This document shows, piece after piece, positions 18,471 to 39,469 of a stretch of DNA of 64,000 nt. The stretch comes from a virus: positions 32,001 to 96,000 of the IMG/VR virus record IMGVR_UViG_3300037258_000147; one strand, given 5' to 3'. Within the stretch, counting starts at the first letter, position 1, and each line of letters starts with the position of its first letter. The translations under genes were made by a program, and so were the position numbers. The notes beneath the pieces were generated by a model. It was not told the DNA's origin, ran no database searches, and worked only from the letters and a program-made list of their open reading frames with translations.

Positions 18471-18474
18471 AAAT

Positions 18475-18631: not shown

Positions 18632-18636
18632 AAATA

Positions 18637-18889: not shown

Positions 18890-18893
18890 AAAA

Positions 18894-18969
18894 TGGAGGC
18901 CCCGGAGAGATTCAAACTCCCGACCAATCGGGTAGAAACCGATGACTCTGTTCACTGAGTTACGAGGCC
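18894..18969 (-). tRNA. tRNA-Arg(TCT)
   Basis: ATCGG-TTTCTAC-CCGAT; CCA end. Confidence 0.88.
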
Positions 18970-18973
18970 GAAA

Positions 18974-19486
18974 TTAATAAGTTCTAAGAAGTCTAATGAT
19001 TTGGGCAGAGTCGGCGAACTTTATCCATTCCCCTTCAGCTAGGTGAACATCAAATCTTTCTAGTAGCCCCTTTTCTGCGGAGCGTCTATCCAAACAAAAC
19101 TCGTAGTTCTTGATGTAAAAAGCCTTATGCGGATCGTAGGTTTGATACGAAGCAAGCCTATCCTCAGTGTCAACCGTCATTCCAATCTTCAAATAATCTG
19201 GCCATGTCGGGTTGGCAATGATGTAGACTTGGCCTTCTTTGCAATCTTTCGGCTTGCATCCTCTGGAGAATTTCAATTTTAGTAAATTTAAGCCGTGTAT
19301 CTTCCTAGCCAAATTATAATCAAATTTTTTATTTCCTCCGATGCTCAAAGTTCCGTAAACTTTAACAGACTCAGATATCATCTCTTCTGTTATATCAAAA
19401 GCAGAATATGGAGGTATTATACCGCGTTCGGACAGAATTTCTATCGTCTTTAGGCTTTTTTCACTAGGATTGCTCAAAGGACTCAT
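18974..19486 (-). CDS. T5orf172/GIY-YIG domain protein
   Basis: GQVYIIANPTWPDYLKIGMT...RLASYQT...E...GEW motif. Confidence 0.8.
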   Translation of the reverse strand: MSPLSNPSEKSLKTIEILSERGIIPPYSAFDITEEMISESVKVYGTLSIGGNKKFDYNLARKIHGLNLLKLKFSRGCKPKDCKEGQVYIIANPTWPDYLKIGMTVDTEDRLASYQTYDPHKAFYIKNYEFCLDRRSAEKGLLERFDVHLAEGEWIKFADSAQIIRLLRTY

Positions 19487-19515
19487 CCCTTTTCTAAAGT
19501 TAAACCAACTAGAAT

Positions 19516-19589
19516 TGGTACCTCGCTAGAGAATCGAACTCTATCCAACCGGGGTAAAAACCCGATATGCACCATCACACTCACGAGGC
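19516..19589 (-). tRNA. tRNA-Lys(TTT)
   Basis: TCGGG-TTTTTAC-CCCGG; CCA end. Confidence 0.85.
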
Positions 19590-19629
19590 GTCTTTTATCA
19601 CTCTCGGATTTTGGTGTCATAACTGCTTC

Positions 19630-19854
19630 TCAGCCAACTAGGTAGTCCGTGGTTTTTAATCCCTGTTCGATACGGAACGCTTCATTCCGTTTCCACGTCT
19701 TGCTTATCGACCAACCTAATAGCCTAATCAAACAATATTGAAATTTTGAACCGGAGAAAGCTGTACCATCGTTTGTCCCAAACAAAATTACATGGGCCGG
19801 ATCAGCCACAGACCCTCTCCAAAATATTCTTGCCTGCGTTGGTCCTGTGTACAT
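19630..19854 (-). CDS. Hypothetical protein
   Basis: 74 aa, AGGAG RBS. Confidence 0.55.
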   Translation of the reverse strand: MYTGPTQARIFWRGSVADPAHVILFGTNDGTAFSGSKFQYCLIRLLGWSISKTWKRNEAFRIEQGLKTTDYLVG

Positions 19855-19872
19855 TTTTAACTACTCCTAAAA

Positions 19873-19947
19873 TGGTGGGTTGCCAGATAATCGAAATCTG
19901 TTCTTCCGGGTAAGAACCGGATGCTTCGCCAGCAAAGCTTGCAACCC
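19873..19947 (-). tRNA. tRNA-Lys(CTT)
   Basis: TCCGG-TTCTTAC-CCGGA; CCA end. Confidence 0.85.
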
Positions 19948-19953
19948 GTTAAC

Positions 19954-20394
19954 TTACGGTATTGTGGTTACGGTAACAGTAACTGTTGTAGTAGTTCCAC
20001 TTGGGGTAGAAGGAACGCCTGGAGTTCCGGGGACTACTACGAAAGCTGGAGCAGAAGAACCGCTTACTGCCGATGCTTGTTGAGTTTGAACTACGTAACA
20101 ATAACTCGTTCCTGATGTTACGGATGAATCGACATATGCGGTTGCCTGCGGAGCAGAAACCCCAACTGAAGAATAAGACGACGCAGTTAGTGGGCAAGTT
20201 GTTCCGGTAACTGGGGTTTTAGAAACCAGAAAAGTACAAGGTGCCGAAGTGCTGCATCCGGACCAACCAGGGGAAGCAGCAGGAACTGTCCAACTCAAAT
20301 TAACCTGAAAAGAAGTCTGAGTTATCTGAGACTCGGCAGAACTTCCAAACACCAGCAGTCCAGCAAAAACCACAAACAGGAATATCTTCTTCAC
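19954..20394 (-). CDS. Secreted fibronectin type III-like protein
   Basis: Likely GTG start at 20394, signal peptide, VNLSWT...YVD..V..G..YCYVV. Confidence 0.7.
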   Translation of the reverse strand: MKKIFLFVVFAGLLVFGSSAESQITQTSFQVNLSWTVPAASPGWSGCSTSAPCTFLVSKTPVTGTTCPLTASSYSSVGVSAPQATAYVDSSVTSGTSYCYVVQTQQASAVSGSSAPAFVVVPGTPGVPSTPSGTTTTVTVTVTTIP

Positions 20395-20437
20395 GTGTTT
20401 TAGCCTTTCATGTCGTTCAAAATTCTTGAATATCGAA

Positions 20438-20529
20438 TGGTGGGCGACGAGGGAATCGAACCCGTCTGGCATCTCTCATCTAGAGACTACAGGGTTTATA
20501 AGGCCCCGCCCCGTCCTACGGCATCGCCC
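20438..20529 (-). tRNA. 8/4 allo-tRNA-like RNA, anticodon TAT
   Basis: 8-bp acceptor GGGCGATG/CGTCGCCC, D arm CCGT-AGG-ACGG, long variable arm, short T stem, ACCA end. Confidence 0.7.
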
Positions 20530-20550
20530 AAACTTGTCCATTTAATGGAC

Positions 20551-20621
20551 TGGTCCCGAAGCGTGGAATCAAACCACTCACCTGGTCTTATGAGAACCAG
20601 TGCTGAATCATCAGCCTCGGG
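20551..20621 (-). tRNA. Compact 8/4 tRNA, anticodon CAT
   Basis: CCCGAGGC/GCTTCGGG acceptor, 6-bp anticodon stem, GTGG/CCAC T stem, 71 nt. Confidence 0.7.
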
Positions 20622-20627
20622 TAAAAC

Positions 20628-20702
20628 ATGGCAGGAGATGAAGGATTTGAACCCTCGAATCCCGGGTTGGAGCCGGGCGGTTTCCGTTAAGCCTAATCTC
20701 CC
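20628..20702 (-). tRNA. tRNA-Trp(CCA)
   Basis: CCCGG-CTCCAAC-CCGGG; GCCA end. Confidence 0.88.
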
Positions 20703-21121
20703 AAAAGATACTCGGATGCATTTTTTAGTAGAGAAGGATCGTCCTTAAAATGACCAATCCCTAGATTGCAACTCCTGCACAACAATCCTCTTACTTTTCC
20801 CGTAAGATGATCGTGATCAACATGCAAAGGTTTGTCGTCTTTCTTACCACAAATCTTACAAATCCCATTCTGCTGCGAAAATAAGAATAGGTATTCCGCT
20901 CCCGTCATCCCATATCTATTTGCTATTTTATAGCTAGGATGTGCTTTGTTCCATTTGTTTGCTTTAGAAATATATTTTTCTATGTTTCTGAGATAATGTT
21001 CTCTACGATAGTCGGCCTGGCAATCTCGGCATTGTTTATGCCTTATCCCTCTCGCTTCATCTCTAAAAGCAAAATCTTGTTCTTCGTCTTTAGAAGTATG
21101 ACATTTAGAACAAATACTCAT
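20693..21121 (-). CDS. Endonuclease VII-like (His-Me) nuclease
   Basis: QNGICKICG...LHVDHDH.TGKVRGLLC..CN..IG motif; stop codon overlaps the tRNA-Trp 5' end. Confidence 0.88.
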   Translation of the reverse strand: MSICSKCHTSKDEEQDFAFRDEARGIRHKQCRDCQADYRREHYLRNIEKYISKANKWNKAHPSYKIANRYGMTGAEYLFLFSQQNGICKICGKKDDKPLHVDHDHLTGKVRGLLCRSCNLGIGHFKDDPSLLKNASEYLLGD

Positions 21122-21136
21122 TTTATTATCAAGAAG

Positions 21137-21213
21137 TGGTAGCCCTAGTAGGATTCGAACCTACACTATGACTCGTTCGTAGCGAGTATGACTTTCCAGT
21201 TGCCGATAGGGCC
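21137..21213 (-). tRNA. tRNA-Arg(ACG)
   Basis: ACTCG-CTACGAA-CGAGT; CCA end. Confidence 0.88.
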
Positions 21214-21221
21214 GTAAAACT

Positions 21222-21295
21222 TGGTCTCCGAGCGGGGATTCAAACCCCGGACGCCGCGCCCCAAACGCGGAATGTTTTCACTACACTACTCAGAG
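21222..21295 (-). tRNA. tRNA-Pro(TGG)
   Basis: CCGCG-TTTGGGG-CGCGG; C1-G72, A73. Confidence 0.88.
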
Positions 21296-21300
21296 ATAAA

Positions 21301-21379
21301 TGGTGCGGGTGGCAGGATTTCAACCTGCGATCTCCTGTTCCCGAAACAGGCGCGTTAAGGCAAACTTCGCTACACCCAC
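21301..21379 (-). tRNA. tRNA-Pro(CGG)
   Basis: CCTGT-TTCGGGA-ACAGG; CCA end. Confidence 0.85.
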
Positions 21380-21494
21380 TTAAACTTTTCGGCCACGATA
21401 AAACTCTGTTCCCCCGCTTCCGACTAGGTTCGAACCTTCTGGGCGTTGGGTGTCTTGTTTTATCTTCGCTCTTTCGAACTAGGCCAAAACTTTA

Positions 21495-21569
21495 TGGTGG
21501 ACTCGGGCGGACTTGAACCGCCATCGCGCAAGGCTTCAACATGCCGCTCTACATTGGAGCTACGAGTCC
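21495..21569 (-). tRNA. tRNA-Phe(GAA)
   Basis: GCATG-TTGAAGC-CTTGC; CCA end. Confidence 0.85.
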
Positions 21570-21750
21570 GAATTTTGATATACGACTTGAGGTCGCTGCG
21601 ACTCCCGTAGGGGCCACTCTTTCTTGTGGTGTCAGCCAAAGCAACCCGATAGACATCTGACAATGCCCGTCAAATTACTCCCGTATAAACTTGGTGGACC
21701 TGTTGTCATCCCTCCGCGCTTTCGCTACGCGGCCCTATGAGGGTTTACGA

Positions 21751-21826
21751 TGGTGGACCCGGAGGGATTGCAACCCTCAAAACTACATTGCAGGTGTAGT
21801 ATGATCGCATGTTTCATCACGGGCCC
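21751..21826 (-). tRNA. tRNA-Ala(TGC)
   Basis: G3.U70, A73; CTACA-CCTGCAA-TGTAG; C33. Confidence 0.85.
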
Positions 21827-22076
21827 GTTTAAATCCAGTATACATTCCATCTTTTGCTAGAAAATGTTCAAGATCGTGGCAATTAGGACACAAAATTTCC
21901 AAATTGGACGGATCATTATTTGCGTGACTACGATCCTTATGGTGAACCTTCAAAATTCCAACTTGTTCATCATATCCGCATCGATTGCATTTCGAGGGAT
22001 AGTTTCTTCTTGCAATTTCCCGATAAGTCCCCTCTGGGGGGGGGGGGGGCGACCACCGAAGCAAGATATCCACCAT
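21783..22076 (-). CDS. HNH endonuclease (N-terminus possibly degenerate)
   Basis: CNRCGY...LKVHHKD...NN..SNL..LCPNCH; 3' end reads into tRNA-Ala. Confidence 0.75.
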   Translation of the reverse strand: MVDILLRWSPPPPPEGTYREIARRNYPSKCNRCGYDEQVGILKVHHKDRSHANNDPSNLEILCPNCHDLEHFLAKDGMYTGFKRARDETCDHTTPAM

Positions 22077-22144
22077 CTGTAGAACTTCTACGCTACAGAA
22101 CGTTCGTCACTCCAGAGTTTAGCATCCTCTGACACTTTCAAAAA

Positions 22145-22377
22145 GTCCCGCTGGTCCTCACCAATACCCGAGTCGAACGGGAAAGCGGGTTTGTCGCAGC
22201 CTACCATTAGAAGACGGTCCAAAGACCGGAGAGATTCGAACTCTCATTTACGACCCACATCAAGCCAGACATCCTATCCACTAGACGACGCTCCGACTCG
22301 GGGACTGTTTACTCGTGTTTGCATCCACGTCAGTCCTTGCTCAGAACGGGATGATTCGAACATCCGTCCTCTGGCAC
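22145..22377 (-). ncRNA. Tandem circularly permuted tRNA-like modules (YrlA-like topology)
   Basis: Three TTCGA T-arms; two of them are followed by a loop-closed acceptor stem and a D arm. Confidence 0.7.
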
Positions 22378-22379
22378 CT

Positions 22380-22455
22380 TGGAGGGAAGGGAGCGAGTCG
22401 AACGCTCTAAAGACATGATCCACAATCATGCGCCGCACCGTTTGGCTTCCAACCC
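22380..22455 (-). tRNA. tRNA-His(GTG)
   Basis: CATGA-TTGTGGA-TCATG; CCA end. Confidence 0.8.
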
Positions 22456-22674
22456 AATTTTTGTTGTCCATTTTATGGACTAAATTTGAGGACCAGACCG
22501 TTGGACACCTCGTTGCTTATTGCGGTCGGCTTGATCTCTTTTATGCGGAAGCCGAGTGGTAATCTTCCGCAGAGCCAAACTCACGGTGTAAATTTGTCGG
22601 TGCTCTCCCTGGTGTCACACCACTGGTTAGGCAAAAGGTATTAGCTCTGCTACCGGGCAAGGTGTCGCCCATTA

Positions 22675-22745
22675 TGGAGCCGATGTACGGAGTTCAACCG
22701 TCAGGAACTCTTTACAGGAGAGTGCCGCTTGCGAAGCACATCGGC
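22675..22745 (-). tRNA. Compact 8/4 tRNA, anticodon TGT (Thr)
   Basis: Perfect 8-bp GCCGATGT/ACATCGGC, D arm GCTT-CGC-AAGC, T stem ACGG/CCGT, 71 nt. Confidence 0.75.
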
Positions 22746-22829
22746 TAACTTTTCGGTGGTATCTTCCCTCAAACCCTGATACTAGGTCCCTCATCTGAGT
22801 CCTTGCAGACCCCAGCACCGATGAAATTC

Positions 22830-22988
22830 GAGTGATGACGAATCGGACTTGATACCGATTCCTACTTTCGCGGTTGCGCCGCTACCATGCCACTAGGGAA
22901 TCTCTTAATGTACACTCAGTTCTACCCCGGTAGGAGAAGCCCTAACACCTTCAAAGCTGCACGTCCATCCGTGCGGATCGTCATCACC
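22830..22988 (-). ncRNA. Large tRNA-shaped RNA with expanded anticodon domain
   Basis: GTGATGACG/CGTCATCAC stem, D arm GCAC-GGATGGAC-GTGC, T-like arm ATCGG-TATCAAGT-CCGAT; starts just downstream of a promoter. Confidence 0.6.
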
Positions 22989-22994
22989 AAATAC

Positions 22995-23023
22995 ATTGTC
23001 TCACAACTCTAAAAACTTGTCAA
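22995..23023 (-). promoter_or_regulatory. Sigma70-type promoter inside the tRNA array
   Basis: TTGACA-17 nt-GACAAT. Confidence 0.6.
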
Positions 23024-23035
23024 CCTAAATTTTGT

Positions 23036-23344
23036 CTAAATCGTATCGTTTTGTTCTAAAGACTCTAACAGCCACAAATCTACAGACAGTTGGGTCCGAT
23101 CTTCTTGGTACCCGATCTCCTGTCCATTTTCTGGAAGCAGTTTTTCCGCCAAGATTAGAGTTGGTTCTATTAAAGAATCTAACCAAGGGTAGTCTGTTCT
23201 GGCCCGATCAAGTTCGGCCATATCCGCTAAAATCAGATTGCCGCTGTCCATTTGTGAAAATATATCAGGAAGAGGCGGCGCTGGTTTTTGCGCTTTGTGG
23301 TGATGGAAGCCGAGGATCACATATAACAAACCTACTGAAATCAT
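23036..23344 (-). CDS. Hypothetical protein
   Basis: Likely ATG 23344 after AAGGA; hydrophobic N-terminus. Confidence 0.5.
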   Translation of the reverse strand: MISVGLLYVILGFHHHKAQKPAPPLPDIFSQMDSGNLILADMAELDRARTDYPWLDSLIEPTLILAEKLLPENGQEIGYQEDRTQLSVDLWLLESLEQNDTI

Positions 23345-23362
23345 AGCTTCCTTTTCAAAGAG

Positions 23363-23434
23363 AGGTCGAAGTCGGAACTGCCCCGACACCGTATCCATAC
23401 CAGGGATACATTCTTCTAGTTAAACTATTCGACC
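23363..23434 (-). tRNA. tRNA-Thr(GGT), divergent T loop, no encoded CCA
   Basis: TATCC-CTGGTAT-GGATA; acceptor GGTCGAA/TTCGACC. Confidence 0.7.
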
Positions 23435-23438
23435 AAAT

Positions 23439-23514
23439 TGGAGCACCTGACCGGAGTCGAACCGGTGACTTCCTCTTTACGGGAGAGGCGCTGTGCCGTC
23501 TGAGCCACAGGTGC
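23439..23514 (-). tRNA. tRNA-Thr(CGT)
   Basis: CCTCT-CCCGTAA-AGAGG; C33; CCA end. Confidence 0.88.
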
Positions 23515-23727
23515 AGTAAGGTATCATAAAAGTGACCTTAAGTAGGTTAAGGTGTCATATATGACACCTTAGTCCATTATATGGACTGAAATTTATGCCA
23601 ACTCGGTGGACGAAAGTTCGAGGGGGGTGTCTAATCGTCTACCTCTGGTCGCGACTAGTTCTAGGCCGCTGGCTGGAGCTTCTTCGCCTTATCACAGACC
23701 CTTATCCGCAAAAAGGTTGAATAGAAA

Positions 23728-23802
23728 TGGAGCGGGCGACGGGTCTTGCCCCCGCAACCTTTGCATTGGCAACGCAATGTTCTGCAATTGAACTACGCCC
23801 GC
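23728..23802 (-). tRNA. tRNA-Gly(GCC)
   Basis: TTGCG-TTGCCAA-TGCAA; CCA end. Confidence 0.85.
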
Positions 23803-23806
23803 GAAA

Positions 23807-23882
23807 TGGCAGGGAGTACAGGAATCGAACCTGTCTGGGTGGGTCCAAAGGCCACCGCCTGAAACCAATCGGCCAACTCCCT
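23807..23882 (-). tRNA. tRNA-Gln(TTG)
   Basis: GTGGC-CTTTGGA-CCCAC; GCCA end. Confidence 0.85.
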
Positions 23883-23890
23883 GTAAAACT

Positions 23891-23964
23891 TGGCACCCCG
23901 TCGTGGATTCGAACCACGATACTCTGCTTCAGAAACAGAAGTCCTGCCGTTGAACGAACGGGGT
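23891..23964 (-). tRNA. tRNA-Gln(CTG)
   Basis: TCTGT-TTCTGAA-GCAGA; GCCA end. Confidence 0.88.
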
Positions 23965-23969
23965 AAATT

Positions 23970-24044
23970 TGGCTCCTCCCCTCCGACTCGAACGGAGACC
24001 TTTTTGGTTAACTGCCAAAAGCAATGCCATTATGCTAGAGAGGA
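23970..24044 (-). tRNA. tRNA-Asn(GTT)
   Basis: TTTGG-CAGTTAA-CCAAA; A33; GCCA end. Confidence 0.85.
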
Positions 24045-24050
24045 ATAAAA

Positions 24051-24569
24051 TCAAAAAGTGCGAAGAGTTCTGATGATTTCCAGGGAATTAGAATGCTTAA
24101 TCCATTCTCCCTCTTCGAGGTGAAAACCAAAATCATCCAACAACTTCTTTTCTGCTTCTCTTCTATCAAGAACGAATTCGTAATTCTTGATGTAAAAAGC
24201 CTTGAAAGGATCATACGTCTGATACGAATCCAGTCTCGCTTCCGAATCTACAGACATGCCTATCTTGATGTGATCCGGCCAGGCTGGGTTACCGATCAAG
24301 TAGATTTGTCCTTCTTTACAATCCTTCGGTTTGGCTCCTCGATGAAACTTCAATCTTAAGAGTTCTAGGCCCGCTAATTTTCTGGCGTACCTATATTGGA
24401 ATTTTCCATTACTTTTCGGGGCAAGACTACCATAGATTCGGATGTACTCGGAAAGCATTTCTTCTGTAATATCGAAGGTTGTGTACGGAGGGACAATATC
24501 TGCATCCGAGAGAAGTCTTACAGTTTCTGCAATTCTTTCTGTTCTTCCTATTTCTTTAGGGTTGCTCAA
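24051..24569 (-). CDS. T5orf172/GIY-YIG domain protein (paralog of 18974..19486)
   Basis: GQIYLIGNPAWPDHIKIGMS motif; near-colinear with its paralog. Confidence 0.8.
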   Translation of the reverse strand: MSNPKEIGRTERIAETVRLLSDADIVPPYTTFDITEEMLSEYIRIYGSLAPKSNGKFQYRYARKLAGLELLRLKFHRGAKPKDCKEGQIYLIGNPAWPDHIKIGMSVDSEARLDSYQTYDPFKAFYIKNYEFVLDRREAEKKLLDDFGFHLEEGEWIKHSNSLEIIRTLRTF

Positions 24570-24592
24570 CGGCTCTCCCCTTTTGAATTTTA

Positions 24593-24669
24593 TGGTAGGG
24601 ATGGTGAGGCTCTAACTCACTAGGACGTGGGTGAAGGCCACGGCACTCGAACACTTTGTATTCATCCCC
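24593..24669 (-). tRNA. tRNA-Glu(TTC)
   Basis: CGTGG-CCTTCAC-CCACG; C33; divergent D and T loops. Confidence 0.75.
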
Positions 24670-24822
24670 ATAAATTTGTGCGACTTACTCGGTGATCGAG
24701 TCGAACGATCCCCCGCTACTTTTGCATTCACGGGTGACAACCAGGGTTCCGTCCTCAGCATCAGATTTGCTGTCTTCCGCCTTGTAGTCCTAATGGACAG
24801 CCGCACAAACTATTTTAAAACT

Positions 24823-25503
24823 TTAAAACGCTACATCACTCCAGGTCAGTTGAATATTTTTGTACAAAGTATTCAATCCTCCAGGTACTAAAGTTTCTGT
24901 TTGCAACTGAATAGCCGCGACTGAAGACCAGTTTGAGGTTTGACTAGGTAGTTCTTGCAAATTACTCGGGACTGAAAATTCTGTGGCTCCCCAAGTAGTA
25001 GACAGCATACTGAACTTGTTGTTCGGTACGTCTATGAAATATCTGAAACTTATTGGCGTCCAAGTGTCAGGAGCCAGAGTTGGTTTAAACCCAGTGTCTA
25101 TCCAGCCCGGAGGGGATGTGTCGATCTGCCAGCTTCCGGTAGACAAATTCAACTGTGAACTAAAGTTGAAGACATTAGGAATCTGTGTACTTGCGTTGGG
25201 GGCTGATTGCGAAACTACTTTTACGTCAATCTCCAGCCGTCCCAAAACAGGAAGATCAAAAGACGAAACGTAAACTTGTAAATCCAATCCCAGATATGGT
25301 AAAAAAATTCCGGGGATACTAGGGACCGGGCGCTTATTGGTTACTAACGCCCCACCAAAAGCTGAGGTACTTACGTTGGTTACCTTCAGAGCCCCAGACG
25401 GAAGTAACGTCGGGATAAAAGCTGAAGAAGGAATAGGATTTACGCTTGCTCCGGTTTGTACTACCCACGTGCCTTTTTCCAGTCCATCATCAATTACCCG
25501 CAT
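24823..25503 (-). CDS. Hypothetical beta-rich protein
   Basis: 226 aa, AGGAG RBS. Confidence 0.7.
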   Translation of the reverse strand: MRVIDDGLEKGTWVVQTGASVNPIPSSAFIPTLLPSGALKVTNVSTSAFGGALVTNKRPVPSIPGIFLPYLGLDLQVYVSSFDLPVLGRLEIDVKVVSQSAPNASTQIPNVFNFSSQLNLSTGSWQIDTSPPGWIDTGFKPTLAPDTWTPISFRYFIDVPNNKFSMLSTTWGATEFSVPSNLQELPSQTSNWSSVAAIQLQTETLVPGGLNTLYKNIQLTWSDVAF

Positions 25504-25514
25504 TAGTCTCCTAT

Positions 25515-25589
25515 TGGTAGCCTACCAGAGAATCAAACTCTGTTCTCGATCTTGAGAAAATCGCATCCTAATCAGTAGAAGAGTAGGCC
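25515..25589 (-). tRNA. tRNA-Glu(CTC)
   Basis: CGATT-TTCTCAA-GATCG; CCA end. Confidence 0.85.
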
Positions 25590-25635
25590 GTTTTATATTC
25601 CACGCCAACGAATTACTGTCATGGTTACTCCTAAA

Positions 25636-25710
25636 TGGCGGGACCGACGAGAATCAAACTCGCATCTTTCTCCTCGACAGGGAGACATCTTATCATTAGA
25701 CTACGGTCCC
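25636..25710 (-). tRNA. tRNA-Asp(GTC)
   Basis: TCTCC-CTGTCGA-GGAGA; GCCA end. Confidence 0.88.
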
Positions 25711-25713
25711 AAT

Positions 25714-25791
25714 TGGTTGCGGCTCTCGGGAGTTGAACCCGGTATCCCAAGGGTATGAGTCTTGGATGGTCATCCGTTCCACTCAGCCGCA
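25714..25791 (-). tRNA. tRNA-Met(CAT), initiator-like acceptor stem
   Basis: TGCGGCT/AGCCGCA-ACCA; CAAGA-CTCATAC-CCTTG. Confidence 0.78.
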
Positions 25792-26406
25792 TCAAAATTT
25801 AAAAATTCCTGCATCATATTCCCAATGATGATTTGGACACAAGGGTAGGAGGTTATCAATATCATTGATCTCTCTTATCAAAGTGTCAGTAGAAAAAGAG
25901 GAAACTGATCTAATATGAGCAACGTCAACGTGATTCGAATACCCGCAAACACAGCATTTCTTCTCTTTACCCCCGTCTAGGTATGTCTGTCTGGCATGTC
26001 GTTGAATCGAACTTCTAGCAGATTGATACCCGCCTCTTCGACCAAACAACTCGCCTTTCGTCCACCCCGAAAGTTTCCCAGTTCTAGTTTTCTTTAAGCC
26101 TCGAACTTTCTTGCACTCTTCAGAACAAGTAAACTTTCTTTTAGGAACAGGAGCCCCACAGACCCGACATCTACGAGAAATATTCTTGTTTCGTTTCCTT
26201 TTCTTAGGAAATTTTGCATTGTTAAAACTCGCAGAACAAGTTCTGTTACAGAACTTCTTTTGTCGAATTTCAGATACTTTCCTTTTTGGATCAATAGTAA
26301 TCATTGACAAACAATGCTTACAAAAATTAGGGTTTGCTAAGTACCTTTCCTCCGCTCTCTGCCTTTGCAGTAAAGCGGAGACTATCGAACCACTTGATTT
26401 TGCCAT
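25792..26406 (-). CDS. HNH endonuclease
   Basis: Zn-finger CxxC repeats; DVAHI...N.IDNL..LCPNHHWEYD. Confidence 0.85.
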   Translation of the reverse strand: MAKSSGSIVSALLQRQRAEERYLANPNFCKHCLSMITIDPKRKVSEIRQKKFCNRTCSASFNNAKFPKKRKRNKNISRRCRVCGAPVPKRKFTCSEECKKVRGLKKTRTGKLSGWTKGELFGRRGGYQSARSSIQRHARQTYLDGGKEKKCCVCGYSNHVDVAHIRSVSSFSTDTLIREINDIDNLLPLCPNHHWEYDAGIFKF

Positions 26407-26485
26407 ACCTAAACGTAAGTTTCCTTTCTCGTATGTTTTATCATACCACAGAAGTCCAGATAATGGAAATCTTTTCTGTGAAAAA

Positions 26486-26572
26486 TGGTGGGTTGTGTAG
26501 GGCTTTAACCTACCATGCTCGAAGGAGCGCCACTTTTACAGAGTGGGAGCCGTACGCCCGGCAATACAACCC
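26486..26572 (-). tRNA. tRNA-Tyr(GTA)
   Basis: CCACT-CTGTAAA-AGTGG; variable arm present. Confidence 0.85.
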
Positions 26573-26577
26573 AAAAA

Positions 26578-26662
26578 TGGAGGAGAGCAGCCGAATCGAA
26601 CGGCCATCCCGAAGGAGCCCCGGTTTTCAAGACCGGATGTATCACCATCAACAGTGCTCTCC
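26578..26662 (-). tRNA. tRNA-Ser(TGA)
   Basis: CCGGT-CTTGAAA-ACCGG; variable arm; can fold as 7/5 or 8/4. Confidence 0.85.
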
Positions 26663-26745
26663 GAATATAACATGACAAGTTATAAAAAGTCAAGGTCCTA
26701 TATATGGGTCGTTAATCCACTATACGACCTATATATGAACCAAAA

Positions 26746-26833
26746 TGGCGGAAGATGAAGTAATCGAAACCTTGTCCATTTAATGGACAGCATCGGGTTC
26801 GAGCCGATTTGACCGCCTTGGTCGCCATCTTCC
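26746..26833 (-). tRNA. tRNA-Ser(CGA), 8/4-type
   Basis: GGAAGATG/CATCTTCC acceptor; ATCGG-CTCGAAC-CCGAT; variable arm is the GTCC-N7-GGAC palindrome. Confidence 0.8.
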
Positions 26834-26869
26834 GTTAACTTGGCCATGTTAATTATCATGGCCGTGATA

Positions 26870-26957
26870 TGGCGGATGGGACAGGACTCGAACCTGCACA
26901 TGCTTTCACATGAGCCGACTTTCCAAGCCGGTGCGATACCGTTCCGCTCACCCATCC
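26870..26957 (-). tRNA. tRNA-Ser(GGA)
   Basis: CCGGC-TTGGAAA-GTCGG; variable arm. Confidence 0.88.
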
Positions 26958-26979
26958 AATTTTTACTGTACAGCAAATA

Positions 26980-27072
26980 TGGCGGAGAGTGAGGGCTTCG
27001 ATCCCCCGTGTCCAAATAATGGACAGCCTCTGTTTAGCAAACAGGCACAATACCGGGCTCTGTCAACTCTCC
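26980..27072 (-). tRNA. tRNA-Ser(GCT)
   Basis: CTGT-TTGCTAA-ACAG; variable arm is the GTCC-N7-GGAC palindrome. Confidence 0.85.
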
Positions 27073-27078
27073 AAAAAT

Positions 27079-27258
27079 TTAAACTTTCATTCTCCGGTAG
27101 TCTGTCCAAGCTTCTTTTCTTGTACTTCCTATTCCCAGAACTTGTTCCCAACGATCACGGCCTCCTATGGAATAGGGTTTGGGAGGCAAAAAACCACCAA
27201 AGCATACTACGAATCCACTGTTGTCTTCTAAACTACGGCAATAAACTTTGTCAGACAT
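27079..27258 (-). CDS. Hypothetical protein
   Basis: ATG 27258 after GGAG; 59 aa. Confidence 0.5.
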   Translation of the reverse strand: MSDKVYCRSLEDNSGFVVCFGGFLPPKPYSIGGRDRWEQVLGIGSTRKEAWTDYRRMKV

Positions 27259-27490
27259 TGTTTCTCCAGCTTGGTGCGGCTTCGAGCCGTCAGCGCCAAC
27301 GGTTGACTCTCCGTAAAACTTTCTTAGTCTAGACTTTGAGTCTAGCAATCTGGACCTTTCGCCGCCGGTCGCCCAGTGGGGGTTTAGCGCCCAGATAACG
27401 CCCCTATCTCGTAACCGTGATTGGCCGCTCCACAATCCTTCGGACTCGGTTATTTGATAATCTATGTGTCAAACACAGTGCTAAGAAACT

Positions 27491-27566
27491 TGGTCCCCGC
27501 GCCCAGATTCGAACTGGGAAAATTACTGGGTTTGAGCCAGTCGCTCTGCCGTTTCGCTACGCGGGG
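27491..27566 (-). tRNA. tRNA-Leu(CAA), short variable loop
   Basis: ACTGG-CTCAAAC-CCAGT; C1-G72, A73. Confidence 0.85.
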
Positions 27567-27572
27567 GTGATA

Positions 27573-27658
27573 TGGTGGGCACGGCGAGACTCGAACTCGC
27601 AATCGGTTTTACCCTTCCGGTTTCTAAGACCGGCGCTTTGCCATTTTGCTACGCGCCC
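27573..27658 (-). tRNA. tRNA-Leu(TAG)
   Basis: CCGGT-CTTAGAA-ACCGG; variable arm. Confidence 0.88.
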
Positions 27659-27666
27659 GTAAAATA

Positions 27667-27742
27667 TGGAGGTCCAGATCGGACTCGAACCGACGATTAA
27701 GAGTTTTGCAGACTCTCGCATTTGCCGCTTTGCTACTGGACC
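27667..27742 (-). tRNA. tRNA-Cys(GCA)
   Basis: AGAGT-CTGCAAA-ACTCT; U73. Confidence 0.9.
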
Positions 27743-27743
27743 A

Positions 27744-27818
27744 TGGTGCGATAGGAGGGACTCGAACCCTCAGACGCTGGGTTTTAAATCCAGATGATTT
27801 GCCATTCTCTACTATCGC
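27744..27818 (-). tRNA. tRNA-Leu(TAA), short variable loop
   Basis: CTGGA-TTTAAAA-CCCAG; ACCA end. Confidence 0.85.
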
Positions 27819-32592: not shown

Positions 32593-32621
32593 TTGACACG
32601 TGGCTTGGACTAGCCTATATT
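32593..32621 (+). promoter_or_regulatory. Early sigma70 promoter
   Basis: TTGACA-17 nt-TATATT at the strand switch. Confidence 0.7.
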
Positions 32622-32646: not shown

Positions 32647-35600
32647 TTGCAGGGAATAGGAGTAAGAAGGGCACAAGCAAAGTCTTTCGACCCGTACGAT
32701 TACGCGGTCGAGTTGGGAGCAACGGAATTCCGTGGGGGAATCAATTGGACTTGGGTAACCTTCACGGAAGAGGATACACGGCAGAAATTCGATGCCGAAT
32801 GCAGGCGGAATGGTTATCGGGTCCGGGATTACGGCGAGTGTAAGACGCAATACCATCATTATCAAGACTAGGATGAAACCGGCCTAGTGCCGTAACGCGC
32901 CTATGTCCAGTCTCCAGTCTGGAATGAGAGAAAGCGGAGAGCGGAGGAAAACATGAAATTAGTAATCGAGATCGACTTTGGCAATGACGCTATGCAGCGG
33001 TATTCACAAGCGCGCGCCGTTATCCAAGACGCGGTAGGCACGTCCGGGTACCGCGCGAAACCGCATATAGGCGATTCCGGATCATTGCGGGACGTGAACG
33101 GGAATCGGGTAGGATTCTGGGAAGTAGAGGAAAACTAACATGCAGCGCTTTGAATATGTGATATGGGGTTTGCCGAAAGATTCGACAGACCCGATTGACG
33201 AAAAGGTGCTATACACTCAAGCTAAGAATGAGGCGGATATTGAACGGGTTAAAGAGCGTGCGGCGCAGATACGGCTGGCACTCCTTTCGTATCCAGATTC
33301 TGGATTTGAAAGATATTCCCGATTTTTCAGACCCAAAGCTCATTAGCTAACGGAGGAAAACATGCAAGCAACTTACCACGATATGACTCCGGCCATCGGG
33401 CAGAAGGTAGTGGTCCGATTTGAAGAGATCGGTGTTAGCTGCCAAGTAGTCAATGTCAAGTCATCCTACGGTCGTATCCGGTTACTCGTTTCCCCGGAGC
33501 TTGGAAATGGGGAGCAATGGGTGGAATTATCCCGGGTCAGGCCACGATCTAACGAAACGGCTATTGTAGCCCGCTAACCCGTCCATTTTGTGGACAAAAT
33601 CGAGGAAACAAAGGAGTTACGGAGATGAACGGAATGAATCCAAAGGAAATGGGGTATTCGGATGCGGCAAACTCTGTCGCACCGAATTCCAATCAAGCCC
33701 TGTTTAACCGTCAAGAGTATATCGACGGGTACGCACAAGGCAGTATAGATAGAGATGCCGACAATTCCATTCTGTACGAGGTAATCATTGGAAACATCGG
33801 CACAGTGTACAGCGGAAAGGATGGGTTTGAGGCATTCAAGCGGTTTCAAATCTATTCAGGACAATCTAAGGGTAATTATGGGCGTGCAACGGGCGAAGAC
33901 GTTACGCTCATGAAAAATGGGGAAATACGCAAGGAATTTATCGGATCAACGTCACGCGAACAGACGGAGGATTAACCGGGCCTTGCCCGTAACGCACCAT
34001 TGCCCGATTCCAAGCTCGGGATGAGAAAGACGGAGGACGGAGGAAATATGGATTACTTGGACACTAATCGAGTAGTGAAGCGGGTCATCTCGGAGGTGGG
34101 AGGAACAATCGCCACTAACGGGATACAGGAATTGTCGCGCGAGGAGCGTGGCGGAATCAGCACGTTTGGGTACGTCCGCACATGCCTCTATGCCACGGCA
34201 TACAACGCGGTTAGGGCAATGCCTGGGTTTGATATGTCCTATAACGAGTTTTGCATGGCGGTCGATCAGGAAACGAAATTAAGTCTGAGTTTTTATCCGG
34301 CAAACGCTAGACGATAACATGAAATCTCCCCTATTAGCAATCTCAGCTTTTATCCTTGCGCGCATATTGTTTGTTTTGATGACGCGTAAACGTAAACTCT
34401 AAACCTTGTCCAGAAAATGGACGGCGCGCGCCGGAGAAACCTTGACACTCTCAGTAGACTCTCTAGCATTTATTGGAATCCTTACCTGTTTGGGATTCTT
34501 GGCGGCCATCGGCTTGGGTAAGCTGTATGGCTGGATTTTTAACTAGTCCAGAAAAGCGAGTAACCATGCCTAAGCTCCTACGCGGCGTCTTCTACGCTCT
34601 AACCTTCGAGCTATCGGCAGCCGGTTTCCTGTATGCTGTCTACCGGTTTTTCCTAAGTCTGAATTAGTCCGAAAAATGGACTGATTCCTAACAAGAGAAT
34701 GTCTCACGGCGCAATGAAAGGACCATCAAATGATAGCACGTAATAGGTTTATGGCTGCATCGAAAGAACAAGCACTAGAGCGGATGGAATATCAGTCTGT
34801 AATGTGCTTGGACCAAGTAGCAGCGGTAAACGAATGGCCGTGGATATACACAAACGCGCAGGTACTCGCCGAAGCTTGTGCGCATTGGGCTTTTGCGGCA
34901 TATCCCGAATTGCGAGTGAATGACGATTTTTGGCAAAATTAATTCACCTTACGGCGAAAGAGAGAGAGACTGTATGCGTCTGACAATTCAAGTTTTTCAA
35001 AATGGGGAAGCGGTCGGGGAATATGTAGCCAATTTTCCGAAGGAAACAGAGACGGAAGCCGTTGACTTGTTTCTGCAACATGCACGCATCGATCTACGGT
35101 ATCGCTTTCTAGGGGAATACGGATTCGTCCAACCGTCGGAAAAGTATTATCTGGTGCTGGCATGAAACCACCGAAGAAATGCAATTGCTACGTCCACGCA
35201 ACGGCAGATTACACTAAGCATTCGCGGGATGCGGTTTTAATCCGTAGGGTTCGACGCGCTGGGCTAGAGCAAGCAAGAAAGTGCCGAATCAGAGCACAAA
35301 GCGAGAGTGACCAGAAAGAGAAAAACTATTTGGAAACCGTTGCTATCTGTGCCGAATGGGAGGCTTGGGTCTGCTTAGTTCATCTCCGAGACATCAAGGC
35401 AAACCGGGCATACGAGAAAAGTTAGTCCATTTAATGGAAAACCTGGAGTTTTATGGGTCATTCCGCGCGCAGCATATTGCCTGACCGCCACCGGGCGTTA
35501 ACCCGGTACACTACCGCAGAGGCAATCAGCCTCATGGAGACGGACATGACATACACGCTGATCATGATCAACGAGCAGGGCGCATCGGAAGAAACCCGCT

Positions 35601-35722
35601 ACCTTATCAGCAAGGCTGATGTGCGCCGCCAAATTCGCACATGGGACGCCAAAGGCATGACAGCCCGCGTTTACACGAGCGATGGTGAGTGCGTATATGA
35701 CGGCTCAGCGCTCTCGTTTTAA
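32647..35722 (+). CDS. Cluster of ~10 small early hypothetical genes (32647-32871, 32953-33138, 33140-33346, 33362-33577, 33625-33975, 34048-34317, 34730-34942, 34974-35165, 35162-35425, 35546-35722)
   Basis: Short ORFs, most with GGAG(G) RBS; typical host-takeover region layout. Confidence 0.65.
32890..32944 (+). ncRNA. Twister ribozyme (type P1)
   Basis: CCG-UAA-CGC-GC-CUAUG-UCCAG-UCUC-CA-GU-CUGGA...GCG-GA-GAG-CGG matches P1/P2/P4/T1/T2. Confidence 0.78.
33987..34040 (+). ncRNA. Twister ribozyme (possibly degenerate)
   Basis: CCG-UAA-CGC-AC-CAUUG-CCCGA-UUCC-AA-GC-UCGGG...GACG-GA-GGA-CGG; mismatches in P2 and T2. Confidence 0.6.
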
Positions 35723-35981
35723 CCTTCGCCGCGCGGTATCCACCGTAAGCGGAGCGTCCGCCGTGGTAGGCGGGGCCGGTAAATTTAGTCCATTTTTCGG
35801 ACAAAACTCGTTGACAAGTCTATTTACCCATGATAGGGTGTAACCAAACGAAAAGGGGAAACCATGTTCCTGCTTCTAGTTGTACTGTTAACCTTCGGCG
35901 GTATGCACGGGCCGGTAACTCACCCGAAAACCCCGCCGCTTACCTTTCGCTGGAAATAGACCGTTGCCGGATCGTAACCGG

Positions 35982-36041
35982 CTCTCAATGCAGCCGCCTT
36001 ACGGCGAGAGTCACAAGCCTCTATAAATGCAGAGTGGGGAG
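35982..36041 (+). ncRNA. Twister ribozyme with P3
   Basis: CUCUC-AA-UGCA-GC-CGCCuuacGGCG-AGAG-UCAC-AA-GC-CUCU-AUAAA-UGCA-GA-GUG-GGGAG. Confidence 0.82.
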
Positions 36042-36046
36042 GAAAT

Positions 36047-36460
36047 ATGGAAACGGAGAAGGATTTTCAAACGGAAGCTAACGAGGCAGGCGAAAGGTTT
36101 GTTGAGGCGGCCCGTGTGCTGCTCGAAACGCTACGCAAGGCTGAAGAAAAAGAGGACGAAGAGGTCCAAGACGATATTACCCAAGAAATTGAGGAGTATC
36201 CGCTTTCTGTCTTGGTACGGTCTGGATGGTACGTTCCCGGCCAAAACACCGAAGACAACAAGCCAGAAGAATACGAGATTTTGCTTGGGACGGGCGGCCC
36301 AGCTTCTCGGATCGTGGGCCGGTTGGATGAATATCTACAGCCCGGGACAGCAACCTTCGAATACCAAGACTGGTTCAAGCCTTGGACGGCGGCGAAATTG
36401 AGCGGGGAGCAGAAAGGCATATTGCTTGAGTTCGCCTCTCATTTCTGGTTCGGCGAGTAA
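36047..36460 (+). CDS. Acidic phage early protein
   Basis: EEYEILLGTGGPASRI...YQDW motif; GGAGG RBS. Confidence 0.75.
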   Translation: METEKDFQTEANEAGERFVEAARVLLETLRKAEEKEDEEVQDDITQEIEEYPLSVLVRSGWYVPGQNTEDNKPEEYEILLGTGGPASRIVGRLDEYLQPGTATFEYQDWFKPWTAAKLSGEQKGILLEFASHFWFGE

Positions 36461-36495
36461 CCCAACTTTGTCCACAAAATGGACGGAAAAGAGGA

Positions 36496-37201: not shown

Positions 37202-37274
37202 GCTCCCAATAACCAGCGTCCGGCCTAGAACGTCACGCGGGGGCGGGCAACACTAACGTTAGTGGCTAATGGTT
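37202..37274 (+). ncRNA. HDV-like ribozyme
   Basis: P1 GCUCCC/GGGGGC, P2 AACCA/UGGUU, P3 GCG/CGC, L3 UCC pairing with P1.1 GG, P4 CACUAAC/GUUAGUG, J4/2 CUAA. Confidence 0.7.
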
Positions 37275-37285
37275 CGAGGTGAGGA

Positions 37286-39469
37286 ATGAAACTCGTTTCA
37301 AACGCAACTACAATCGCAGAGTTCCGCGCAGATGTTCTCCAATACATCGAACTTCGCGCCGAGCAAAACCGAGCGGCTGAAAGGTCGGTCACCGGAAAGA
37401 ACATCAAGAAGATGTATATTCATGCCGCGTCTGAGATTCAGTCTATCGCCGATGATCTGCGCTATATGGACTCTGGGAATAAGGTAGCGTAATGCGTATT
37501 TTCCGGTCTCCAATATCCCGGATCAGTTGGAGGAGCGGGAATTTTCTTACATCCCAGGCGCGATCCTTGTCTGAGGTAATCAAGGGTCCGGCTAGACACC
37601 TTACGGCAAAGCCGGATTTTGTCTGCGCTGCCTGTACAAAGAATATGCACTACGCATGTGTTAGTAAAAGGTGCGAGTGCGGAAAGAAGCATTTATGACC
37701 CAAAATTTTTCCTTGACAGACCAACTAGGGTTGGCTATAATCATTGTAGCAATTTTGGAGTTGTGGTTTTTGTGGTAACTGGAATCTGTCCGAAAAATGG
37801 ACAAAAGAGGGGTTATGGAAATCAAAACCAGCACACTAGGGCCGTCTTGGGACGACTTTGAAACCGCAAGAATGAAAAGGGAAGACGAAAACGTAGCGCG
37901 GCGGGTAGCAGACTACCAGCGGCGCGGCGGATGGTTCGACCAAACCGAAGAGGAATTGTGATAGTCCCTCTGCAATACTGCTGTGACGCGCCCGGATGTA
38001 CGCAGGTTCGGACGGATACGAACCGATGGTGGGTCGTCTACACGGGATACCCCAGCCATATCGGAGTGTATACGTGGGATCACGCCGAGGCGGATCACAA
38101 ACTGGACAGCACGGACTCCCGCCACTTCTGCGGCCAAACTCACGCTCTGCAATTCGTATCATCTGAGATGGGGGTAAAATGAAACTCTCCTTCGAGGATT
38201 TTGTCTACTACTCGGAATGGCTTGAGATAGTTCGGATGGGGAATTTTGTCGGCGAGTATGAATTACGAAAAATTATTCTCAAGAAAATCCGAGAATTCAG
38301 ACGAGGCCGCCCACTTTTTGCCGGACCCTACGGGGATAAATCCGCGTGGGCTGGAATGGTCCGCAATTGGTACAAGGCATATGTGGAGGAAGCATGAAAC
38401 ACACGGAGATATTTTATTCTCTCTGCGAGGCCCACACTATTCTGTGTCTAGCCTGCGATAGGGCCGGAAACGCGGCGGATGTTTGGTGGATTCCCTTTTT
38501 CGGGCGGAACCGCTGGCGAGCCTACCGCACTGCACTCCATGCTATGGAGTACCTGCAAAAACAGGTAGGCGAAGAATACTCGCTGGCTGTTGAGGAGCTT
38601 TGCCAATGACCAATCTTTCAACCAGAAAGTCAAAGTGTATTGTCCAGTTTTCGGACACGATTCGGGAGCGGGGCCGGTTACGTGAAGTCATTATGGAGTT
38701 CTCACCCTACGGTATTAAAGTCCGACTCAAGGGCATGAGAAGTTCATACGATATTTCCCCGGCCTCTATCTACAACTCTGCTGTGCTTAAGTTTGTGGCA
38801 GCACAAAAATCTGAGAAGAAGGCCAAGAAAGCGGGGAGGAAATGAGGCAAGTGCGAAATAAATTATGGCTGCATAGTGGCTACCGGATCGGAGAAAACGG
38901 ATTCATATTTAACCGTCCAGCCTGTCGGTTGTGTAAATTGTTCGACGCCCGAGTTTGCGAAAATAAGTATTGCGTTTTTTGCTTTGTCGGACTCTTGGAG
39001 ATTCGGGGGATATGGGGATCGAGACGACGGCGGACTACGGGGGCTATCGTGCGCAGGACTCGAAAGATTTACAGGAACTCAGTTAGTCCGAAAAATGGAC
39101 AACCTGAATGACCAATCAGCTAGGCGATCTAACAGCCCGACAAGAAGCCTTACGGCATCTACGTTCCAGATGGATGAAATTATTCTTGACTAAGCCCTGG
39201 ACTTCGGATAACGTAAGGGAGAGAGCTTTGATTTGTGAGAAGATTGTTAAGTGGGGTGCAAAGTGAAAACCTACGAAGTAAAAGTACCGATTGCCGGACA
39301 CGCTTATGTTTATGTCGAGGCTGACTCGGAAGAAGAGGCTATCACAACGGCTGTGAGTGCGGCTGAGTTGCAGGATTTAGGCGGCTGGGAAGCCCTGCGG
39401 AAATTCAACATGGGCAACGTCTGTTACTGCCCGCAACCTTGGGAAGCAGAAGCTGCGGAAATGGAATAA
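37286..39469 (+). CDS. Cluster of small hypothetical genes (37286-37492, 37492-37698, 37958-38182, 38179-38397, 38394-38609, 38606-38845, 39263-39469)
   Basis: Translationally coupled short ORFs. Confidence 0.6.
37713..37741 (+). promoter_or_regulatory. Consensus sigma70 promoter
   Basis: TTGACA-17 nt-TATAAT. Confidence 0.8.

Follow-up and report, generated by a model that had tools for sequence, protein, structure and literature searches.

Three elements between the small genes

The DNA analysed here (the window) is a stretch of 64,000 nucleotides, bases 32001–96000 of the 104,680-bp IMG/VR virus record IMGVR_UViG_3300037258_000147, which is estimated to be 97% complete. It stems from an uncultured soil phage; two soil-metagenome DNA runs contain the sequence, and the listing of sequencing runs for this DNA comprised these two DNA runs and no RNA run. 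The structural genes, including portal and large terminase, are located on the minus strand up to about 32.5 kb, and the same strand carries more than 20 transfer RNA (tRNA) genes (array at 18399–27818). From about 32.6 kb a block on the plus strand begins with many small open reading frames (ORFs) without known family; the genes for replication come after these (integrase-like, DNA polymerase, RecT-like, exonuclease). That the small genes are early genes is a reasonable guess. Three intergenic elements, which we describe as putative twister ribozymes, are situated between the small genes at the start of this block.

All three elements could be read directly from the sequence, with their stems (P), pseudoknots (T1, T2) and loops (L), at the positions and with all the parts that had been proposed for them in the original prediction (Table 1). 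Every element terminates with GGAGGAAA, and the ATG of an ORF of 61, 89 or 137 codons follows 5–6 nt further; the proteins encoded by the three ORFs bear no relation to each other. The catalytic parts are kept in all three: N-A-A at the cut site (UAA, UAA and CAA in elements 1, 2 and 3) and an L1 3' strand starting with GA (GAGAG, GAGGA and GAGUG). The catalytic G is position 45 of the Oryza sativa ribozyme (PMC5408937), which we mapped onto the first G of GAGGG in that sequence.

Some repetition was seen around these parts. The octamer ACGGAGGA is present three times around element 2, at the end of the upstream coding sequence (33964–33971), in the P2 3' strand and L1 (34030–34037) and in the P1 3' strand and the Shine–Dalgarno sequence (SD) (34037–34044). 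With the last two copies a different register is possible, the SD itself then being the P2 3' strand and T1 strand. In element 1, CGGAG is found twice, 8 nt apart.

Table 1. Parts of the three elements and adjoining features, in window coordinates
Feature	Position	Strand	Basis or remark
Element 1, P3-less variant twister (putative)	32890..32944	+	direct reading and family covariation; no Rfam match
Element 1 P1	CCG 32890-92 / CGG 32942-44	+	read from sequence
Element 1 predicted cut site	U32893-A32894 bond	+	read from sequence
Element 1 P2	CGC 32896-98 / GCG 32934-36 (3 bp)	+	read from sequence
Element 1 P4	UCCAG 32906-10 / CUGGA 32919-23	+	read from sequence
Element 1 T1 pseudoknot	CUC 32912-14 / GAG 32939-41	+	read from sequence
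Element 1 outer T2 pair	G32899.U32918	+	inner T2 pair is C-G
Element 1 L4 loop	UCUCCAGU, C32915 at first A of AAG	+	A in 22/22 other family members
Element 1 5' hairpin CGGC-CUAGU-GCCG	32880..32892	+	3' arm holds P1 CCG; one base before cut-site U
SD GGAGG 32943-47 and 61-aa ORF, ATG 32953	32943..33138	+	SD overlaps P1 3' strand CGG
Element 2, P3-less variant twister (putative)	33987..34040	+	direct reading and family covariation; no Rfam match
Element 2 P1	CCG 33987-89 / CGG 34038-40	+	read from sequence
Element 2 predicted cut site	U33990-A33991 bond	+	read from sequence
Element 2 P2	CGC/G(A)CG, bulged A34030 (3 bp)	+	read from sequence
Element 2 P4	CCCGA 34003-07 / UCGGG 34016-20	+	read from sequence
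Element 2 T1 pseudoknot	UCC 34009-11 / GGA 34035-37	+	read from sequence
Element 2 outer T2 pair	A33996.C34015	+	inner T2 pair is C-G
Element 2 L4 loop	UUCCAAGC	+	canonical
Element 2 5' hairpin CGGGC-CUU-GCCCG	33977..33989	+	2 nt past upstream-gene stop UAA (33973-75); overlaps P1 5' strand
SD GGAGG 34039-43 and 89-aa ORF, ATG 34048	34039..34317	+	SD overlaps P1 3' strand CGG
Element 3, canonical type-P1 twister (putative)	35982..36041	+	RF03160 52.2 bits; both pseudoknots intact
Element 3 P1	CUCU(C) 35982-86 / (G)GGGA 36037-41, 4-5 bp	+	read from sequence
Element 3 predicted cut site	C35986-A35987 bond	+	read from sequence
Element 3 P2 / P3 / P4	P2 4 bp; short P3 CGCC/GGCG; P4 AGAG/CUCU	+	read from sequence
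Element 3 T1 pseudoknot	CAC 36012-14 / GUG 36034-36	+	read from sequence
Element 3 T2 pseudoknot	GC 35993-94 / GC 36017-18	+	read from sequence
Element 3 L4 loop	(G)UCACAAGC(C)	+	fits conserved U-NNN-AAGC
Element 3 P0 hairpin GCCGG-AUCGUAA-CCGGC	35966..35982	+	within 21-mer identical 5' of L090 variant twister
SD GGAGG 36038-42 and 137-aa ORF, ATG 36047	36038..36460	+	SD inside P1 3' strand GGGAG 36037-41
Sigma-70-like promoter candidate TTGACA-17-TATATT	32593..32621	+	11/12 matches; about 270 nt 5' of element 1

Rfam and folding analysis

The Rfam model twister-P1 (RF03160, clan CL00120) matches element 3 over its full length (35982–36040) with 52.2 bits (E 4.8e-10 in 3.6 kb, 8.6e-9 in 64 kb), and this is the sole RF03160 match in the whole 104.7-kb genome. 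The covariance model leaves out the T1 and T2 pseudoknots; both fit exactly in element 3. We regard element 3 as a genuine type-P1 twister as far as can be judged from its sequence. When Rfam was run over the window at gathering threshold, only tRNAs were reported. Minimum-free-energy folding did not single out the three elements from their shuffles (z −0.74 to +0.65), which is the expected outcome because the fold is pseudoknotted.

The original prediction had called all three elements twisters and had named the Rfam twister models as a check. For element 3 the identification holds by way of RF03160 and the pseudoknots. Elements 1 and 2 gave no model hit, the outcome that had been named as speaking against it, and their identification has to be based on the covariation of a family and on bridging sequences, as set out below.

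A variant family comprising elements 1 and 2

Elements 1 and 2 are 85% identical. Of the 15 differing columns six make up three compensatory pairs in P4 and four make up two compensatory pairs in T1. With a DNA pattern derived from both elements homologues were found in IMG/VR and JGI metagenome contigs; a second pattern, which left P1, P2 and the 3' end unconstrained, gave additional homologues, and a covariance model yielded extra copies matched by neither pattern. The family was thereby recovered from 20 other viral and metagenome contigs, and its alignment holds 25 matches with 23 distinct sequences. Many members are close relatives, and in most of them UAACGC, AUGAGA and CGGAG were fixed by the search patterns.

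In the 23 distinct sequences 93.1% of the cells are paired when the twister fold with both pseudoknots is applied, compared to 31–51% when the partners are slid by 1–3 columns. Changes on both sides are observed in 13 of the 16 pairs of the fold, and none of 500 shuffles reached the observed covariation. All stems are well paired (P1 95.5%, P2 88.4%, P4 100%) and each contains pairs changed on both sides. T1 is paired throughout (100%) in four versions (CUC/GAG, UCC/GGA, CCC/GGG, CAC/GUG) and P4 occurs in 15 versions; further versions of P2 (UGC/GCA, CCU/AGG, UGUG/CACA) and, in outliers of the family, of P1 (UCU/AGA, GAC/GUC, AAC/GUU) were also found. The covariation of T1 and P4 that had been predicted for the three elements was borne out by the compensatory columns of elements 1 and 2 as well as by the family.

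The outer T2 pair is G.U in 9, A.C in 13 and G-C in one of the sequences and never A-U, a count whose weight is limited by the phylogenetic non-independence of the members; the inner pair is C-G in 22 of 23. A G.U pair and a protonated A.C pair are isosteric, and the pattern looks like selection for wobble geometry. P3 is missing in the family. P2 has 3 bp, with a single-base bulge (A, C or U) in the 3' strand of eight members, and P4 is joined to P2 by a linker of 9–10 nt, AUGAGA(G)AA(A/G), at the site of the optional P5 insertion in other twisters.

Across the 104.7-kb genome, the family model R2, made from variant sequences only, has only two strong matches, elements 1 and 2, and the next match is element 3 (18.9 bits, E 0.002). 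Two members of the family on the viral contig L128 (1117–1171 and 782–838), which have a 4-bp P2 and a linker of the same type, score 39 bits (E 1e-5) and 36 bits (E 8e-5) on RF03160, and the nearest relative of element 1, on contig L126, scores 25 bits. A third site on L128 (2108–2166) matches Twister-P5 with 54.9 bits (cut-off 37.6) and shares the 3-nt P2 strand and the G.U T2 pair. Since these bridging sequences score in Rfam, elements 1 and 2 are tied to the catalogued twisters.

We considered whether elements 1 and 2 could be ordinary intergenic sequence that fits a loose twister template by chance. The missing Rfam match and the folding energies, no better than those of shuffles, would agree with this. 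However, more than 15 independent contigs contain homologues, in which each helix as well as T1 shows compensatory changes, and in the genome it is these two elements that the family model selects, followed by element 3. A chance resemblance is therefore extremely improbable. Judged by its covariation the family is a twister variant undetected by Rfam 15, and taken together the identification of all three elements as twister ribozymes is well supported computationally.

Several candidates were rejected. Pattern matches on L088, L093/L103/L114, L096, L097/L098, L101, L118, L119 and L127 were discarded as P4 and T1 were missing. An assignment of elements 1 and 2 to type P5, with the upstream hairpin as P1, was also abandoned: in element 1 and most members there is no P2 3' strand with GAG 5' of the hairpin, element 2 being an exception with ACGGAGGA in the coding sequence, 5 nt from the hairpin. 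A pattern scan of 185,579 prokaryote genomes returned one chance match (Bradyrhizobium, lacking P4), and neither a host nor a prophage was identified in it. One viral contig with a family member, L095, also carries a permuted transfer-messenger RNA (12428–12805; RF04321, 94 bits), which is either phage-encoded or part of a prophage flank.

The same module in related phages

The arrangement at elements 1 to 3 is not confined to the window. An SD and a start codon are found 8–15 nt past the start of the P1 3' strand in 18 of 21 variant-family matches (19 distinct sequences) and also on L126, and the layout hairpin, twister, SD, start codon precedes at least 17 unrelated proteins. The copies on L126 and L128 have the same layout, on L128 with a short spacer before the SD. 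The fusion of the P1 3' strand to the ribosome-binding site (RBS), GGAGG followed by ATG, which the original prediction had noted, is real and recurs before unrelated genes elsewhere.

A megablast search of GenBank phages with 30–40 kb of the window was without match, and a search with the 137-aa protein encoded 3' of element 3 found no relatives; the 227-aa pentapeptide-repeat protein led to 79 loci, which were rejected as syntenic relatives. The contig L089 shares genes with the window at 28.8–32.4 kb (up to 80–87% amino-acid identity). Its small-gene region contains a Twister-P5 (42 bits, cut-off 37.6) and two variant twisters, all three with an SD and start codon just 3', and in addition an HDV-like (hepatitis delta virus-like) element of 39.8 bits, under the cut-off of 44. 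The genome G001, with 62% DNA-polymerase identity, has matches to Twister-P5 (61.9 bits), Hammerhead_II (42.5 bits) and HDV-F-prausnitzii (48.7 bits); each exceeds its cut-off and lies just 5' of an SD and ATG. RF03160 and model R1 found no match in the DNA-polymerase relatives G001 and G002; these phages have ribozymes of other classes instead. Finally, contig L090 has a variant twister at the site equivalent to element 3; both sites have the same 21-mer on their upstream side and homologous pentapeptide-repeat genes on the downstream side, by which the correspondence was recognised.

Such exchange of one ribozyme class for another at corresponding positions is the strongest indication that self-cleavage is selected: if different catalytic RNAs occupy equivalent slots, cleavage itself would be the selected function. 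It also strengthens the proposal, already made in the original prediction, that a polycistronic message is processed, which is plausible from the sequences.

The Twister-P5, Hammerhead_II and HDV-like sites of the two closest relatives lie at 8353–8407, 8634–8702 and 6885–6956 on L084 (all minus strand) and at 5468–5525, 7886–7944 and 11591–11661 on L089 (the last HDV-like and under the Rfam cut-off). An SD and start codon stand directly 3' in five of these six, where the sequence was read. The 21-mer ACCGTTGCCGGATCGTAACCG is identical at window 35961–35981 and on L090 (minus strand, just 5' of 6095) in surroundings that have otherwise diverged. It sits directly 5' of two different twister types and may mark the edge of a module or a site of recombination. 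On the unrelated viral contig L128 five twisters, four of type P1 and one of type P5, were found within 3.3 kb (200–3485). A hairpin of the type CUCCUGGCG...CGCCAGGAG precedes four of them, and an AAAGGA-type SD with ATG follows all five. A further HDV-like homologue was noticed in the window itself at 37202–37276 (plus strand), 5' of an SD and ATG 37286, which would add to this block a fourth ribozyme that belongs to a different class. Because of an insertion it scores only 21.1 bits on RF02682 (E 0.05 in 211 nt); it aligns with HDV-F-prausnitzii matches above threshold in relatives (L084 6885–6956, 48.7 bits).

Hairpin, P1 and the ribosome-binding site

In elements 1 and 2 and most members a GC-rich hairpin of 4–5 bp extends up to the base preceding the cut-site U, and its 3' arm includes the CCG which is also needed for P1 with the downstream CGG. 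As both use the same CCG, hairpin and P1 are mutually exclusive; the hairpin is the stronger of the two and is transcribed earlier. In element 3 and in the member on L099 the overlap amounts to one base. The stop codon of the upstream gene is located just 5' of the hairpin in element 2 and several relatives.

The overlap of the P1 3' strand with the SD in all three elements raises the question whether cleavage gates translation: P1 would hide the SD, cleavage would release the 5' strand and open the RBS, and only processed RNA would be translated. Element 3 fits best, its P1 (CUCUC/GGGAG) covering four of the five SD bases. P1 also covaries in the family outliers listed above, and where SD and anti-SD had been built into P1 of an engineered twister, expression was set by SD accessibility (PMC5052635). 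However, in elements 1 and 2 and most members a 3-bp P1 covers two SD bases and has to compete with the GC hairpin, and P1 is dispensable for twister catalysis (PMC5408937). Moreover, the members on L128, L107, L109 and L110 have no SD in P1, and the hammerhead, HDV-like and P5-type twister ribozymes in the same slots of relatives do without SD pairing. SD accessibility computed with ViennaRNA showed no clear change between precursor and 3' product; as the predicted folds did not contain the twister fold, this comparison carries no weight. We consider such gating unlikely. Control of RBS exposure, as originally suggested, is plausible only for element 3, where P1 covers most of the SD.

A more far-reaching reading would be that the family of elements 1 and 2 is an active and structurally distinct subclass with a P1 supplied by the upstream hairpin and not by the 3' tail, a P2 shorter by one pair and a T2 kept to wobble geometry (G.U or protonated A.C). 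Hairpin, ribozyme and RBS would then move together as a mobile cassette, in which the hairpin would compete with the 3-bp P1/SD pairing and form a switch. Termination of a ribosome on the upstream gene could melt the hairpin (the stop codon lies 2 nt before that of element 2), and the melting could link translation of that gene to cleavage or to the opening of the following RBS. We hold this whole scheme, cassette and switch included, to be quite unlikely.

Proposed transcript processing and its alternatives

The reading that we favour, and think fairly probable, is that elements 1 to 3 are cis-acting twisters which split a multi-gene transcript into separate units. All three gaps share one order of parts: hairpin, cut site, ribozyme body, SD and start codon. 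Twister cleavage would occur 3' of U32893, U33990 and C35986. The upstream RNA would terminate in a hairpin and one further nucleotide that bears a 2',3'-cyclic phosphate, and the downstream RNA would open with a 5'-OH and the compact ribozyme, with its own RBS right after. By this route a multi-gene transcript could be divided, with no need of a host nuclease, into units that are stable by themselves and insulated from their context. In the variant family the helix beside the cut site would mainly be provided by the upstream hairpin.

Processing of polycistronic transcripts has been suggested as a role of bacterial twisters (PMC6765202). In high-throughput tests about 94% of natural twister candidates were active, and bulges, deletions and mismatches in P1, P2 and P4 as well as G.U in the 2-bp pseudoknot were tolerated (PMC11662667).

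Several points weigh against transcript processing. With 52.2 bits element 3 stays under the RF03160 gathering threshold of 67.2 bits, and elements 1 and 2 have zero matches in Rfam at E≤10. The conservation of the three fixed motifs is partly by construction because the search patterns fixed them, which does not apply to the covariation. Element 1 is alone in the family in having a C at an L4 loop position that is otherwise A. The 2-bp pseudoknot contains A.C in element 2 and 12 further members, and at this place mismatches other than G.U usually lowered cleavage strongly (PMC11662667). A gain or loss of base pairs in P2 may perturb the active site (PMC5408937). P0 hairpins, present in about 10% of tested twister candidates, cut mean in vitro cleavage from 0.85 to 0.40, which was ascribed to alternative conformations (PMC11662667). 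With promoter-like sites at 34442 and near 35812, transcription could yield shorter RNAs in place of a single long early message. If the host has RNase J, a 5'-OH end can make the downstream RNA less stable instead of protecting it, for which glmS is a precedent; the effect of a 5'-OH on RNA stability depends on the host nucleases.

These features could also mean that element 1, element 2 or both are twister-derived structured leaders that have lost cleavage and serve as folded insulators, stand-by sites or protein-binding elements, with only element 3 being catalytic. The missing Rfam matches, the 3-bp P2, the A.C pair of element 2, the A-to-C change in the loop of element 1, the poor tolerance of the 2-bp pseudoknot for non-wobble mismatches and the inhibitory P0 (PMC11662667) would all fit. 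On the other hand, catalytic nucleotides and both pseudoknots are conserved through compensatory changes in 23 sequences, none of which a structured leader needs, and the isosteric switching of T2 between G.U and A.C points to a selected geometry and not to decay. In addition, the variant substitutes for a canonical twister at a syntenic site, and other catalytic classes occupy equivalent slots in relatives. We give this alternative little credence.

Transcript processing thus remains the best reading, RBS gating being weakly supported and mainly for element 3. As to the single elements, element 3 is likely to cleave; for element 2 with its A.C pair the prospect is somewhat better than even, and for element 1 with the A-to-C change at 32915 the chances appear evenly balanced. 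Cleavage in vivo, the polycistronic and early nature of the transcripts and any effects on stability and translation are what we infer from this arrangement.

Other features of the region

The promoter candidate in front of element 1 is given in Table 1 as context only, since the count of promoter-like sites in the region was not above that of shuffles; the candidate at 34442–34469 is weaker. Between elements 2 and 3 three very small ORFs encode hydrophobic peptides of 27, 33 and 31 aa (34319–34402, 34566–34667 and 35864–35959), the last one just 5' of element 3. A partial match to a group I intron is located close to the left edge of the window (1015–1120, minus strand; 29.4 bits, E 0.0015).

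A 15-nt inverted repeat, GTCC[AG]-N5-[CT]GGAC with an AT-rich centre, is present in about 70 copies in the 104.7-kb genome (146 strand-matches versus 6.9 ± 3.1 in shuffles). Copies lie along both gene blocks, for example at 33581–33595, 34408–34422, 34667–34681, 35788–35802, 36470–36484 and 37788–37802, and within 32.8–36.2 kb they are mostly intergenic. The repeat is kept in relatives, where it forms a stem of the hammerhead match of G001 and P4 of the HDV-like matches of G001 and L089. As part of ribozyme stems it should be transcribed; conceivable functions are those of a hairpin for protein binding, of a signal for processing or of a terminator.

Comparison with known systems

Compared to the type-P1 twister described by RF03160 (Roth et al. 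2014, reviewed in PMC5408937), element 3 has the same order of parts (P1, N-A-A cut, P2, GC(C), optional P3, P4), the same 8-nt loop U-NNN-AA-GY, the A-rich linker, the P2 3' strand, GAG+NN, the P1 3' strand and both pseudoknots. It differs by a C before the cut instead of the usual, less conserved U. Elements 1 and 2 share with this type a P3-less architecture, P3 being missing in about 20% of twisters, e.g. O. sativa Osa-1-4 (PMC5408937), and the P0 hairpin. They differ in having a P2 of 3 and not 4 bp, sometimes with a 1-nt bulge, a P4–P2 linker of 9–10 nt versus about 5 nt, an outer T2 pair of G.U or A.C and not G-C, and a hairpin that overlaps the P1 5' strand. The G.U/A.C T2 pair amounts to a specific structural prediction, and as the variant family is missed by Rfam 15, surveys based on Rfam would undercount phage ribozymes.

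The RNase III sites of phage T7 are likewise intercistronic, lie in a small-gene region, yield gene-sized units and leave a hairpin at the upstream 3' end. In contrast to T7, here the RNA itself would cut and not a host enzyme, giving 5'-OH and cyclic phosphate products, and the structured element would stay on the 5' end of the downstream RNA. That four kinds of ribozyme (twister P1, twister P5, hammerhead II and HDV-like) occupy the same slots between stop codon and RBS with start codon in related genomes argues for RNA-only processing in these phages where T7 relies on host RNase III.

Twisters near phage genes were already known. In the literature that we searched, natural twister-RBS modules had not been described from phage operons. 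For the bacterial and phage twisters and hammerheads, which number in the thousands, the biological role has been described as open (PMC5408937, PMC6765202), and this phage group offers a compact testable case.

A ribozyme directly 5' of a bacterial RBS is found in engineered parts: the twister with the SD in P1 (PMC5052635), RiboJ (PMC6206723) and ribozyme-assisted polycistronic co-expression, pRAP (PMC9872166). In these parts cleavage strips the upstream context, and in the design of Felletti et al. 2016 it frees an SD held in P1 (PMC5052635). They were designed, whereas the phage module is natural, is repeated before unrelated genes and has a conserved upstream hairpin. With its resemblance to RiboJ and to the twister SD constructs, the natural hairpin-twister-RBS module could itself supply parts for synthetic biology.

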